A stretch of 64,000 nucleotides of DNA, from assembly GCF_016026235.1 (NCBI RefSeq), contig NZ_CP065613.1; one strand, given 5' to 3'. Of this stretch, positions 10,634 through 45,462 are shown one piece after another. The notes under the pieces are model-generated. The model saw nothing but the letters and a program-made list of their open reading frames with translations. It was not told where the DNA came from and did no database searches. The first letter of the stretch is position 1. The number at the start of each line of letters is the position of its first letter. Position numbers and translations under genes: made by a program. Source of the DNA: Escherichia coli. GTDB taxonomy: Bacteria > Pseudomonadota > Gammaproteobacteria > Enterobacterales > Enterobacteriaceae.

Positions 10634-10700
10634 CTCATTCTGACAAGATTTAATCTCTTGTCAGAATGAGGTGAATAATCTGGAAGGAGGATTCAGAAAA

Positions 10701-13391: not shown

Positions 13392-14343
13392 ACCATTCCT
13401 TATGTTTCAGAGGGTTAGCCATGGCACCCAAAATATCAGAAATCACGTTAACAATAATGACCAGTGAGCCACACACCATCACTCCGGCGGAAATGGCTGC
13501 GTAATCCTGCTGGCGGATGGCGTTAATTAACCAGCGCCCTAAACCCGGCCAGCTAAAAACCATTTCGGTGATCATCGCCAGCGTCAGCATGGTGGAAAAC
13601 TGTAAGCCCAGGCGAGGAATAACCGGCGGTAACGCGTTATGCAGAACGTGGCGACGCAAAATAGTAAAGCGCGACAAACCGCGGGTCGCCGCCGCTTTTA
13701 CATAGTTCTGGTCATACACTTCAATAGTGCTGATACGCATCAGGCGGATCACTTCAGTTGTTGGCGCAACCGACAGGGTGATCACGGGCAATATCATATG
13801 GCGGATTGCGCTCATGATCATTTCATCCCGCCATGGTGAGTCCGAAAGCCAGGCATCAATCAACGCAAAACCGGTAATCGGTTTCACTTCGTAGAGCAGA
13901 TCGAAACGCCCTGAAACGGGCAACCAACCTAGCGTGAGTGAACAAAACAGTGTCAACAGAAGCGCCAGCCAGAACACCGGGATTGAAAAGCCCAGTAAGG
14001 CGATGGCGTTGATCAAGTTATCCTGCCACTTATGGCGCGTAATCCCGGCAATCATCCCCACGGGGATGCCAACAATCAGCGCAAAACCGAAGGCGAGGAT
14101 GCACAGTTCCATCGTCGCCGGGAAGACCTCTTTTAACTGTTCGGCAATTGGTTGACCGTTAATGCTGGAAACACCAAAATCCCAGTGGATCAGGCCATTA
14201 AACCAGAACACCCAGGCATTCCACAGTGACGCGCCTTGTAACGGCGCGTGTGGAGTGAAATAGCTCAAGCTGAAGCCAACGAAGGTCAGCAGGAACAAGG
14301 TGACAATCAATAACAAAATGCGGCGTAAGGTGAAGATAATCAT
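13378..14343 (-). CDS. sapB: ABC transporter permease SapB
   Basis: 321 aa polytopic membrane protein; overlaps the sapC start. Confidence 0.9.
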
Positions 14344-15983
14344 GGTTTTTTCACCTCATCCTGTTTCTCGCGATACACCCCAGCAAAGGAGGCGTTACCA
14401 AACGGGCTAAGTACCAGACCTTTGATATCGTACCGATAGGCCTGCAAACGCAATGACGACGCCAGCGGCAAAATGGGCAATTCCTGCGCCAGAATACTCT
14501 GCGCTTCGTCATAGGCTTCAATACGCGCCGCCAACTGCTGCGAGGAGAGCGCCTTACGCAACACGCTGTCGAATTTCGGATCGCACCAGTGGGCGAGGTT
14601 GGTCTGTGAATGAATTGCCGCGCAGCTCAGTAACGGACGGAAGAAACTGTCCGGGTCGTTACTGTCCGTCGCCCAACCGGATAACGTCAGATCATGGCTC
14701 ATATCCATCAACCGCGCCTCCTGAAAGCGACCTTCTACCGGCACAATCACCACTTTTACGCCAACCTGCGCCATATCCGCCTGAATCAGTTCGGCAGTTT
14801 TCAGTGGACTGGGGTTCCACGCCTGCGAACGTGTGGGCACCCACAGTTTCAGCGTTAAATTTTCCAGCCCCAACGACTTCAACTGTTCGCGCGATTTCGC
14901 CGGATTGTATTCAGTAATTTTAGCCTCGTTGTCATAGGCCCACGAGGCGCGCGGTAAAATAGAGGCCGCCGTTTCAGCCGTACCATAATAGATGGATTGC
15001 ATCAGGCGCTGGTTATTAATCGCCAGTGCCAGCGCATGGCGGACAGCGGGATTATTTAGCGGCGGTTTGGCGGTGTTAAATGCCAGATAGGCGACGTTCA
15101 TCCCAGGACGCAGCGTTAAACGCAAGCGCGGGTCGTCACGCAAAATGGATAGCTGGCTGGCAGCAGGCCAGGCCAGAACGTCGCATTCCCCGGTCAGGAG
15201 TTTAGACAGACGTCCGGTGCCGCCGGAGCCTAAATCCACCACCACCTGCGGCATTAACGGTTTACCGCGCCAGAAGTCATCATGACGTTGTAGGCGAATA
15301 AATTGCCCGGCGCGGTATTCCGACAACTGATACGGTCCAGTGCCGACCGGTTGACGGTCGAGTTGCTCCTGGCGATCTTCTTTCTCTAACTTCCGGGCAT
15401 ATTCTGCCGACATGACCGAAGCATAATGGGTTGCGAGGTGCCACAAAAAAGAAGCATCCGGCTGAGCCAGACGGAACTCAACGGTATGATTATCCAGTTT
15501 ACGGACGCTTTTCACGTTATCGGCAAATTGCAGGCTGTCGAAGTAGGGGAAGTTGCTGCCGTTGACGTTATGCCACGGGTTGTTGCGGTCAAAAATTCGC
15601 TGGAAGGTAAACACCACATCGTCGGCATTCATTTTACGAGTGGGAGTAAACCAGTCGGTTTTTTGAAACGGAACATCGCGACGCAGGTGGAAGCGATAGG
15701 TCGCGCCGTTGTCGAGTACTTCCCAGCTTTCGGCAAGTTCCGGCATCAGGCGATAGGTATAGGGATCGACATCCAGCAGTCGATCATAAAACTGGGCGGC
15801 AAGGGTATCGACAATTAACCCACTGCTCGCTTTGGATGGGTTAAAGGTGTTGACTTGCCCGCTGACGCAATAGACAAAACCGCTGTCGCGGATATCAGCA
15901 TGCGGGGGGGATTCAGGCGCGGCGATTGCCTGACCACTCACAAGTCCAGCAATCACCAAAAGAGACGATAATACCTGGCGCAT
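14340..15983 (-). CDS. sapA: Periplasmic substrate-binding protein SapA
   Basis: ORF 14340..16034; probable start at [21 protein letters not shown] (signal peptide); family 5 SBP. Confidence 0.88.
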
Positions 15984-16230
15984 AATATTAGGGATTTTAT
16001 GTAAAGAGGCTATCTTACTAATATTTAATGACATTTGCCATTACCGTTTGTGTTCAGGGGTCGTAATGAGGGCCGTGTGGTTGGTCGTTGAACAGGTGGC
16101 GTCGCCATCTGTTCAACATTCGTACCCGTGATTTCTCTATAACTATAACTCACAGAACAACTTAGCGAGGAGCAGAGCGGTACGATCGTGAGAAACCCAT
16201 TAAAGCACGCTGCAGTGCGTGTCATTGTTA

Positions 16231-16262
16231 GCCGGATGCGGCGTGAACGCTTTATCTGGACA
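16231..16262. repeat. REP (repetitive extragenic palindromic) element
   Basis: GCCGGATGCGGCGTGAACGCTTTATCTGG matches the REP consensus; lies downstream of ymjA. Confidence 0.55.
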
Positions 16263-16294
16263 ACGATACTGACCGATCGTCTGCAATTAAATAA

Positions 16295-16540
16295 TTACTC
16301 ATTACCCCATTGATTCAAAAACTCTGCGATCTCATCAATGCGTACGGGATTAATCCCCGCTTCAGCAGCCATTTCATGTTGGGCTTCTTCGCTGATCTCT
16401 TCATTGTTCATCAAACGGGTGAGCAGTAACTGGAAGTAGTGGGCCAGCGGTGTGCGTTCAGCCTCTGCGACAGGCTCTGCGCATTCGGTCGCGTACTCAT
16501 CGGCAATATCAAAATATTTTAGCGGGATATCGTGGTTCAT
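16295..16540 (-). CDS. ymjA: Small acidic protein YmjA (DUF2543)
   Basis: 81 aa [22 protein letters not shown]... Confidence 0.8.
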
Positions 16541-16673
16541 TATTTGCCCCTGGGGTTAATGCGCTAAGCATAAGGGCGGATGATAGCACTCGTGATCCGG
16601 GTCATACATCTTTTTATAGTTAATGGCGCGGCGCATTACCCTCAGGCAGGATAATGCGGCGCGCATCCGACTA

Positions 16674-18059
16674 TTACGTTTCGCTCACCGGCGTTCTGTC
16701 ACCTTCGTACAGCGGCACTTTGCGATAGCGGCGGATCAGATACCACAAATATGCGCCGCCTAACGAAGCCCATACCAGACCCAGCGTCAGCGAGGTGGCT
16801 TCGAGGTTAATCCACAGCACGCCGACCGTCAGCGCGCCAACCAGCGGCATTAATAAATAGTGGAAGTGTTCCTTCCAGCTTTTATTCATTCCTTTGCGCC
16901 GCCAGAAGTGGTTGAACACCGACAGGTTAACGAAGGTAAACGCTACCAACGCGCCGAAGTTAATTAACGCTGTGGCGGTAACTAAATCGAAGAACAGCGC
17001 CGACATCGCGACAATTCCGACCATAATGACGTTCAGTGCCGGAGTCCGCCATTTTGGGTGCACATAGCCAAACACGCGCTCCGGAAACACATTGTCGCGC
17101 CCCATCACATACAGCAGACGTGACACGCTGGCATGTGAGGCCAGGCCAGACGCTAACGTGTTCACAAACGTGGTGCAGAGGAAAATCGACTGGAACAGCT
17201 TACCGCCGACGTAGAGTGCAATTTCAGGCAGTGCGGCGTCCGGGTCTTTAAAGCGGCTGATATCGGGGAAGAACAGCTGCATAAAGAACGACGCCGCGAT
17301 AAAGATAACGCCACCATAGACCGCCGTCAGGAAGATGGCTTTCGGGATCACGCGTGCGGCGTCTGGTGTCTCTTCCGAAAGTGTGGTCACCGCATCGAAA
17401 CCGAGGAACGAGAAACAGACAATCGTCGCCCCGGTAATAATCGGAATCAGATGCGCGTTCTCGCTGATAAACGGCTGAAGTGACCAGACGGTGCCAACGC
17501 CTTCTCCTTTATGCAGTCCCTGAACCACCAGGAAGATAAACACCACCATGATGGAGATTTGCACCAGTACAAACAGGGTATTGAAGTTAGCGACCAGGTT
17601 GACGCTCTTCAGATTCGCGGCGGTTAAAATGGCGACGAAGGTTACCACCCACACCCACGGCGGCACTTCCGGGAAGAGGGCGGAGAGATAGATTTTCGCC
17701 AACAAAACGTTGATCATCGGCAAAAAGAGATAATCCAGCAGTGATGACCAGCCGACCATAAATCCGACGTGCGGGTTAATCGACTTTTGCGCGTAGGTAT
17801 AGGCCGAACCGGCCTCCGGAAACTGGCGAACCAGTTTGCCGTAGCTGATAGCGGTAAACAGCACGCCCGCCAGCGCCAGCAAATAGGACGCCGGGACGTG
17901 ACCGTCGCTAATGCCAGATACAATGCCAAAGGTATCGAACACAGTCATCGGCGTGAGATAGGCCAGACCCATCATTACCACCTGCCACAATTTCAGTGAT
18001 TTTCGCAGACGGGTTTTGCCGGGTTGCGCAGCAATATTCAGTGGTGAATTAATAGCCAT
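16674..18059 (-). CDS. puuP: Putrescine importer PuuP (APC family)
   Basis: ORF 16674..18113; probable start at [12 protein letters not shown]; about 12 transmembrane segments. Confidence 0.9.
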
Positions 18060-19780: not shown

Positions 19781-19916
19781 GATTCTTCGCCTTTGGTTTG
19801 TTTTCCGCTCGTTATCAAAGCGTAAAATATAATGACCACTATTCGAATCTGTATGCAAACTAAATGTTTGTTAAATGTTAAATTGAGTTTGCAAAAATGA
19901 AAACCCACTGCTAGAT

Positions 19917-19936
19917 TGAAAAAATATTGAACATAA
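19917..19936. promoter_or_regulatory. Candidate PuuR operator in the divergent puuA-puuD control region
   Basis: AAAAATATTGAACAT resembles the recalled PuuR motif AAAATATAATGAACA; related AAATGTT repeats lie at 19862-19885. Confidence 0.35.
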
Positions 19937-19991
19937 AGGTCATTTAAACCGCAGTAATGGCGATAATTTAGTCCACTTTGTGAGATTGAGC

Positions 19992-20756
19992 ATGGAAAAT
20001 ATAATGAACAATCCGGTTATCGGTGTCGTAATGTGCAGGAACAGGCTTAAGGGTCATGCGACCCAGACTCTGCAAGAAAAGTACCTGAATGCCATCATCC
20101 ACGCAGGCGGTTTGCCAATTGCGCTGCCACATGCGCTGGCGGAACCGTCCTTACTTGAACAACTTTTGCCGAAACTCGATGGCATTTATCTTCCTGGTAG
20201 TCCCAGCAATGTGCAGCCGCACCTATATGGTGAAAACGGCGATGAGCCTGACGCCGATCCCGGGCGTGATCTTCTGAGCATGGCGTTAATTAATGCCGCA
20301 CTCGAAAGGCGCATCCCCATTTTCGCCATCTGCCGGGGTTTACAGGAACTGGTGGTGGCAACCGGTGGTTCGTTGCATCGCAAGCTGTGCGAACAGCCTG
20401 AATTGCTGGAACATCGGGAAGATCCCGAACTGCCGGTGGAACAGCAATATGCACCGTCGCATGAAGTTCAGGTTGAAGAGGGGGGATTACTGTCTGCGTT
20501 GTTACCTGAATGTAGCAACTTTTGGGTAAACTCTCTGCATGGACAAGGGGCGAAGGTCGTTAGCCCACGGTTGCGTGTTGAAGCTCGCTCGCCGGATGGC
20601 TTAGTTGAGGCGGTTAGCGTCATCAATCATCCTTTTGCGCTGGGCGTACAGTGGCACCCGGAATGGAACAGTAGCGAGTACGCGCTTTCGCGTATATTGT
20701 TCGAGGGCTTTATCACCGCTTGTCAGCACCATATCGCTGAAAAACAGCGACTCTGA
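19992..20756 (+). CDS. puuD: Gamma-glutamyl-gamma-aminobutyrate hydrolase
   Basis: ORF 19980..20756; class I glutamine amidotransferase-like with catalytic Cys in AICRG. Confidence 0.9.
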   Translation: MENIMNNPVIGVVMCRNRLKGHATQTLQEKYLNAIIHAGGLPIALPHALAEPSLLEQLLPKLDGIYLPGSPSNVQPHLYGENGDEPDADPGRDLLSMALINAALERRIPIFAICRGLQELVVATGGSLHRKLCEQPELLEHREDPELPVEQQYAPSHEVQVEEGGLLSALLPECSNFWVNSLHGQGAKVVSPRLRVEARSPDGLVEAVSVINHPFALGVQWHPEWNSSEYALSRILFEGFITACQHHIAEKQRL

Positions 20757-45392: not shown

Positions 45393-45462
45393 GAAACCTT
45401 CCTGCTATCCAAATAGTGTCATATCATCATATTAATTGTTCTTTTTTCAGGTGAAGGTTCCC

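Follow-up and report, generated by a model that had tools for sequence, protein, structure and literature searches.

Stem-loops in bacterial 5' leaders can influence mRNA decay, and the hairpin of the ompA leader is an example. Template switching at quasipalindromes is also established in E. coli genetics, through the Ripley model and the quasipalindrome reporters in thyA and lacZ. The near-perfect palindrome that we analyzed in the leader of sapA can be compared with both. Like leader hairpins that affect mRNA decay, it would form a stable stem-loop within the first 50 nt of a transcript, has no role in termination, and is followed by an unstructured segment. Unlike the ompA hairpin, its stem does not begin directly at the 5' end but 13-18 nt into the transcript, and it is unconserved beyond E. 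coli and confined to minor transcripts from a distal promoter. As at quasipalindrome hotspots, the changes in the sapA leader seem to cluster in one arm and to run towards complementarity, and correction of the single mismatch may be recurrent. The process in the sapA leader differs from those hotspots in that it is inferred from natural variation in approximately 20 genomes plus outgroups, and in that some of the recurrent changes (C>T giving G.T) lessen perfect complementarity. Our reading, to which we give about an even chance, is that the palindrome forms an RNA stem-loop peculiar to this lineage, within the long 5' leader of sapA. Its effect on the long sapA mRNA would be at most modest.

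The palindrome lies at 16087-16117 (minus strand) of the window, by which we mean the whole 64-kb stretch of E. coli DNA that was analyzed, and its sense strand reads GUUGAACAGAUGGCG-A-CGCCACCUGUUCAAC. A repeat search returned arms of 15 nt each at 16087-16101 and 16103-16117 (GTTGAACAGGTGGCG and CGCCATCTGTTCAAC) that are complementary at 14/15 positions (93%) around a 1-nt centre. This confirmed the description in an earlier note on this DNA of a near-perfect 31-bp inverted repeat with 15-bp arms, a single mismatch and a one-base centre. The note had placed it at 16087-16120; the content was right and the position was off by one, the quoted string being 16086-16119, a difference that is immaterial. 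In the transcript, the 5' arm is GTTGAACAGATGGCG (16103-16117, minus strand) and the 3' arm, which is the fast-evolving one, is CGCCACCTGTTCAAC (16087-16101, minus strand). The repeat had also been located between ymjA and sapA, approximately 100-135 bp upstream of sapA, and we measured 104-134 nt 5' of the sapA ATG.

The sapA coding sequence (14340-15983, minus strand, start at 15983) is the gene downstream of the leader. The ymjA coding sequence (16295-16540, minus strand) has its own promoter, from which read-through RNA crosses the hairpin, and puuP is on the minus strand, like sapA and ymjA. The 311-nt spacer between ymjA and sapA is 94-100% identical in 5,421 of 5,426 complete E. coli genomes, and the K-12 RefSeq annotation has no feature inside it. 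An in-frame ATG at 16034 lengthens the mechanical sapA open reading frame to 564 aa. The segment 15984-16034 is nevertheless leader and not coding, because it carries 1-nt indels: the window is without a T that is present in K-12, and the Citrobacter lengths differ.

To judge by searches of shuffled sequence, repeats of this quality are rare. Three loci in the window (16087, 10634 and 47009) have arms of at least 15 nt with no more than 1 mismatch and a loop of no more than 8 nt, and none was found in 30 first-order Markov shuffles of the window. A degenerate palindrome pattern matched the window once, at this locus, and had 0 matches in 100 shuffles. A binomial estimate gives approximately 0.025 such repeats by chance per 64 kb and approximately 2 per 4.6-Mb genome. 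The palindrome is therefore unusual locally, yet its occurrence by chance somewhere in the genome is not impossible, and rarity alone is no proof of function. It was found at a median of 1 place per genome across 5,421 E. coli genomes, and no second copy was found in the 64-kb window.

Published transcript starts place the palindrome within sapA RNA. Kim et al. 2012 (PMC3415461, supplementary file 2) listed a sapA start 148 nt before the ATG in K-12, with 2 reads. The SMRT-Cappable-seq data of Yan et al. 2018 (PMC6131387, Supplementary Data 2) have a sapA start at 1357263, 153 nt before the ATG, a proximal sapA start at 1357133, 23 nt before the ATG, and the operons ymjA-sapA and ymjA-sapA-sapB, which begin at the ymjA promoter (1357699/1357701). 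We carried the K-12 start coordinates over to the window by alignment. The distal sapA promoter, P2 (16130-16147, minus strand), has its -10 hexamer TATAGT at 16142-16147 and starts at 16135 (K-12 1357263) and 16130 (K-12 1357258). The proximal promoter, P1, lies with a highly conserved block at 16005-16050 (minus strand), with the -10 hexamer TAAGAT at 16012-16017 and the start at 16005 (K-12 1357133). A sigma-70 SELEX peak in the spacer was assigned to a predicted ATGACA-15-TTTAAT promoter upstream of P2 (Shimada 2014), and the locus was not found in the text of the Cappable-seq report (Ettwiller 2016).

The palindrome thus lies 3' of the starts mapped 148 and 153 nt before the ATG and 5' of the start codon, as a leader stem-loop should. 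It occupies +19 to +49 of the P2 transcript that starts at 16135, or +14 to +44 of the one that starts at 16130. It is also inside the ymjA-to-sapA read-through RNA, and lies 82-112 bp upstream of the proximal P1 start. P2 is a weak promoter, with 2 reads in Kim et al. 2012 (PMC3415461), so few sapA mRNAs bear the hairpin.

The predicted fold of the sense RNA is a 14-bp stem that closes a 3-nt loop and contains one A.C mismatch; its energy is -18.6 kcal/mol (35 nt), with z = -6 relative to dinucleotide-shuffled sequence. Within the P2 leader, 13 pairs of the hairpin are predicted with a probability of at least 0.94, and the hairpin is present in both the MFE and the centroid folds of the whole intergenic RNA. 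An RNA processing hairpin was one of two identities offered in the earlier note, and the hairpin as such gained from these results: the palindrome is transcribed, with a mapped distal start 5' of it, and it is predicted to fold. P2 transcripts have 13-18 unpaired nucleotides 5' of the stem, which is not the arrangement of a 5'-terminal protective hairpin of the ompA type. Directly 3' of the hairpin is a C-rich, G-poor leader segment (16045-16086, minus strand; 18 C and 6 G in 42 nt). If the hairpin acts at all, it would act as a structural element of the long leader and not as a DNA operator. Only a minority of sapA transcripts come from P2 or the ymjA promoter; on these, the hairpin could slow RNase E in its 5'-to-3' scanning or offer a double-stranded processing site.

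The comparison within E. coli covered twenty sequences, from the window, from K-12 and from 18 further genomes. They contained at least 7 alleles of the hairpin, with energies from -7.5 to -23.3 kcal/mol. The window allele (14/15 complementary, -18.6 kcal/mol) is identical over 61 nt in approximately 30% of 5,422 records. The allele of K-12 and relatives has CGTCAC for CGCCAC, which adds one G.U pair (-15.9 kcal/mol), and the allele of O157:H7 and O104:H4 is a perfect palindrome (15/15, -23.3 kcal/mol). The B2/ST131 allele, in ST131 and relatives, has two changes (-12 kcal/mol), and two further alleles, with energies of -14 and -20.6 kcal/mol, were found in four strains (L085/L099 and L086/L096). 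Strain N96 (L092, NZ_CM169999.1, positions 151-211) has a rare broken allele, AACCACCTGAACAAC, in which four clustered changes in the 3' arm reduce the energy to -7.5 kcal/mol. This allele, which largely abolishes the hairpin, occurred in 1 genome among the 5,422 records; a hairpin of -11 kcal/mol or stronger is kept in nearly all of 5,421 genomes. With natural alleles ranging from -7.5 to -23 kcal/mol, the precise stability of the hairpin is unconstrained. In one of the strains compared, L090 (E. coli 88-3493, NZ_CP027457.1), sapA is annotated as a frameshifted pseudogene.

The density of polymorphism in the repeat (5/31) equals that in the rest of the spacer (40/283), and so gives no sign of purifying selection on the repeat; the P1 and P2 blocks vary clearly less. 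The 3' arm holds three of the five common polymorphisms, two of them C>T sites at which the change is inferred to have recurred. On the sense strand, C>T accounts for four of the five variable sites, and each of these changes yields a G.U pair or mends the A.C mismatch. Compared with the flanks, the excess of C>T falls short of significance (4:0 versus 7:6), and it could be a mutational bias. The pattern also fits a mild preference for changes that spare RNA pairing.

When changes were mapped on a tree of the flanking sequence, 8 fell in the 31 nt of the repeat (3 homoplastic) and 88 in the 911 nt of the flanks (9 homoplastic), in what is a small sample. The change that mends the A.C mismatch, giving the perfect palindrome, was found on two backgrounds, and for two variable sites 3 nt apart all four possible haplotypes were present. 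Both observations favor recurrent mutation, recombination being possible as well. In this small sample, the alleles hint at recurrent mutation that includes recurrent correction to a perfect palindrome.

We then compared the leader across species with a SapA scan that took one genome per species and yielded 80 loci. Four Escherichia species were compared (E. coli, L002, L003, which is E. whittamii, and L004). Among the SapA-scan loci, ymjA was upstream of sapA in the three non-coli Escherichia loci only, and puuP was upstream of ymjA in E. whittamii alone, L002 and L004 lacking it there. All four Escherichia species have an identical 5' arm, GTTGAACAGATGGCG, which in Citrobacter is approximately 80% conserved. 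In sister species, 4-6 of the 15 positions of the 3' arm differ; this arm is CACATCCAGTGCGAC in E. whittamii, where 8/15 positions are complementary, and TACCACCAGTGCAAC in L004, the second such species, where 10/15 are. In Citrobacter, the 3' arm is unrelated and only 3-6 of 15 positions are complementary. For comparison, the arms are complementary at 14/15 positions in the window, 13/15 in K-12 and 12/15 in L002. Folding z scores ranged from -2 to -7 for the E. coli alleles, with -2.9 for L002, the closest relative, -0.6 in both E. whittamii and L004, and approximately -0.8 on average in Citrobacter, with most values near 0. The homologous segment of E. whittamii, L004 and Citrobacter folds no better than shuffled sequence.

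Thirteen Citrobacter-type loci have other genes upstream, yet have approximately 180 nt of sapA upstream sequence in common with E. coli. This shared sequence includes a near-invariant P1 block and a recognizable P2 sequence, with no palindrome at the corresponding position. The Citrobacter RNA is predicted to form two short helices with an 8-nt loop, and that of E. coli one continuous stem with a 3-nt loop. A two-helix model taken from one Citrobacter sequence had 76.5% paired cells, against 18-45% in slid controls. Its covariation was weak (0.230 versus 0.166; 11/500 shuffles), and RNAalifold on the Citrobacter alignment gave just a 4-bp stem of -1.25 kcal/mol. There may be an older, weak pairing tendency. 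As far as the sampled sequences go, the strong palindrome is a novelty of the E. coli lineage, and among them only E. coli and L002, its closest relative in the sample, have a strong hairpin.

A metagenome scan for further Citrobacter-type leaders with the pattern GTANATTCAAAGTGGA was unspecific, and only L186 and L188 were genuine among 120 stretches. In Salmonella, Enterobacter and C. gillenii, the C-terminus of what looks by eye like a pspF sequence adjoins sapA, and the spacer is unrelated. One Citrobacter locus, L014, has a 206-aa regulator-like open reading frame and a large membrane-protein open reading frame upstream of sapA.

The differences between E. coli and its relatives seem to be concentrated in one arm. 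Against E. whittamii, the E. coli 3' arm differs at 6/15 positions, the 5' arm at 0/15 and the rest of the spacer at 13% (p = 0.012); against L004, the 3' arm differs at 4/15 (p = 0.16). If Citrobacter is taken as the outgroup, the branch to Escherichia seems to be where most of the complementarity arose. It seems to have been improved later in E. coli, by G>T at one position and by C>T repair in some lineages, and to have eroded in the sister Escherichia species. The 3'-arm changes would have made that arm complementary to the conserved 5' arm, and a quasipalindrome (template-switch) mutation is proposed as their source from the pattern only. Since the change is one-armed, clustered and directed towards complementarity, the palindrome was probably produced in this way. 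The four-change 3' arm of N96 is another clustered, one-armed change. We also considered a small inversion, the E. coli 3' arm corresponding to an inverted Citrobacter direct repeat (ATGTTGA twice), and dropped it as inseparable from transitive similarity.

Several other identities for the palindrome were weighed against a leader stem-loop. One is that it marks the 3' end of ymjA mRNA, as a weak terminator or attenuator or as a stabilizer hairpin that blocks exonucleases. It does share its strand with ymjA and lie 178 nt past the ymjA stop, with a REP-like element in between, and its stem is stable. Like Rho-independent terminators, the stem contains G+C and has a short loop; unlike them, it has no U-tract, is read through and has no mapped 3' end. 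There is no T-run after the palindrome on either strand, and the minus-strand sequence that follows, GACCAACCACACGG, has no U-run, as the earlier note had pointed out. A scan for promoter and terminator consensus found no sites, with 0 terminators in 15800-16700, and the Term-seq tables of Adams 2021 have no entry for ymjA, sapA or these coordinates. Capped full-length reads from the ymjA promoter (Yan et al. 2018, PMC6131387) pass the palindrome and continue into sapA and sapB. Taken together, the reads that cross it, the missing U-tract, the empty scan and the missing 3' end indicate that the palindrome is not a terminator, and the note's judgment that an intrinsic terminator was unlikely held up. 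The palindrome is also absent from other Escherichia species that retain ymjA, and we regard a role at the ymjA 3' end as very remote. The other identity in the earlier note, a binding site for a dimeric regulator, would make the palindrome a DNA operator at which a bound factor blocks elongation from P2 and from the ymjA promoter, or activates P1 from approximately -97. In its favor, the dyad is near-perfect, and perfect in O157:H7 and O104:H4, and, as with dimeric-repressor operators such as the PuuR sites of puuA-puuD, it lies between two promoters of a polyamine-related cluster. The arms share TGAACA with the PuuR-type 15-mers of the neighboring puuA-puuD region, and the K-12 annotation calls the sap operon a putrescine exporter. 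The conservation check, which the earlier note had named as a possible refutation, went against it, however. E. whittamii and L004 keep one half-site alone, their 3' arm having diverged, and Citrobacter has neither palindrome nor dyad. Conserved half-sites with conserved spacing were found in neither the Escherichia sisters nor the 13 Citrobacter-type loci. The distance between the complementary segments differs between genera, which fits RNA pairing and is hard to square with a dimeric operator of fixed spacing. Within E. coli, polymorphism is at a neutral-like density and common alleles break the DNA symmetry. The 15+1+15 dyad is also much longer than usual operators, the PuuR 15-mer had no match in the palindrome within 3 mismatches, the matS consensus had none within 2, and the truly conserved dyad of the promoter region is elsewhere, at 16026-16043. 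No regulator or binding data were found in the literature on the ymjA-sapA spacer. An operator is thus improbable, and of the two earlier ideas, the RNA hairpin is the better.

A more serious rival is that the palindrome is a functionless by-product, a chance or template-switch quasipalindrome that is incidentally transcribed and drifts neutrally, with no effect on sapA or ymjA. We think this somewhat unlikely. It would account for the absence from sister species and Citrobacter, for a polymorphism density that matches the spacer next to the much more conserved P1 and P2 blocks, and for the wide spread of allele energies, with one natural allele largely broken; approximately 2 such repeats per genome are in any case expected by chance. 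It accounts less well for the finding that four of five polymorphic sites, and 7/8 inferred changes, keep pairing in the sense RNA, when approximately one third would be expected, or for the recurrence of the change that repairs the mismatch. The hairpin also certainly sits in real transcripts, so it could hardly be without any physical effect on the leader RNA. At the other extreme, the hairpin might be a recent, E. coli-specific tuning element of sapABCDF, in which recurrent quasipalindrome mutation creates alleles of very different stem strength that set the level of the long sapA transcript in each lineage. We regard this as remote. If it were true, the palindrome would be a mutational 'dial' that works through leader RNA structure, and its settings would run from the perfect palindrome of O157:H7 and O104:H4 through the weaker stem of B2/ST131 to near loss in one strain.

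The leader stem-loop that we favor carries little weight for regulation at large: the operon encodes a non-essential transporter, and the hairpin, previously unannotated, sits on one of its minor transcripts. The locus has modest value as a clean natural example of a near-perfect palindrome that would have arisen within one species from a non-palindromic ancestor, with the adjacent regulatory blocks fixed. It is also a caution that dyad symmetry need not mean an operator, and the comparative data favor the dyad at 16026-16043.

That conserved dyad, TAATGGCAAATGTCATTA (16026-16043, minus strand), overlaps the -35 and spacer of the proximal promoter P1. It lies in the block ACAAACGGTAATGGCAAATGTCATTAAATATTAGTAAGATAGC (16008-16050, minus strand), which is almost invariant in Escherichia and the 13 Citrobacter-type loci, and parts of which are recognizable in Klebsiella loci. 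The block looks like the real operator or promoter core of sapA, and the dyad is more likely than the 31-bp palindrome to be a candidate control site of sapA. In the puuA-puuD divergent region, a PuuR-like 15-mer (AAAATATAATGAMCA-like) occurs in three copies at 19824-20010 with 0-2 mismatches, which we take to be PuuR operator repeats; with up to 3 mismatches, 2.2 matches are expected in the whole window.

We also considered REP/BIME elements, since the palindrome, like them, is intergenic, transcribed, hairpin-forming and 3' of a gene. This candidate was rejected: the palindrome is present once in each E. coli genome and has no sequence relation to REP, and an Rfam scan of 15000-17500 with E up to 10 found nothing on it. 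The only Rfam match was a sub-threshold naRNA4/REP-like one upstream of the palindrome (19.5 bits versus a gathering score of 59.5), at a degenerate REP-like hairpin pair just 3' of ymjA (16194-16261, minus strand). This degenerate element is 80 nt upstream of the palindrome in the same transcript; it is absent from the K-12 RefSeq annotation and is deleted in Escherichia sp. MOD1-EC7003 (L002). Likewise rejected as the reason for the repeat was a 21-codon open reading frame, MLNRWRRHLFNDQPHGPHYDP (16054-16119, minus strand), which starts at 16119, approximately 1 base before the hairpin, and runs through it. No stop interrupts the frame in the three other Escherichia species, but the encoded amino acids vary freely over the 3' arm. 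The frame lacks a clear Shine-Dalgarno sequence and is not retained in Citrobacter. In the literature, ymjA appeared in a Topo IV paper as a linked marker only and in a NaF paper as listed Nac-regulated only.

The window contains two other inverted repeats of comparable quality. The one at 10634-10670, CTCATTCTGACAAGA TTTAATC TCTTGTCAGAATGAG, is perfect, with a 7-nt loop, and lies between a 268-aa open reading frame (SapF-sized) and the next open reading frame downstream. Shimada 2014 assigned a CTGACA-16-CAGAAT promoter to ycjD, and this promoter is inside the repeat, with one hexamer in each arm. The other, at 47009-47045 (16-17 bp; AATATGCCTGATGGTGCAACACCATCAGGCATATT), lies between the convergent open reading frames 45436-47004 (plus strand) and 47048-47554 (minus strand), and looks like a bidirectional terminator hairpin. 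The matS consensus, GTGACRNYGTCAC, has a perfect match at 1192-1204 (GTGACACTGTCAC), which is consistent with a location of the window in the terminus macrodomain.
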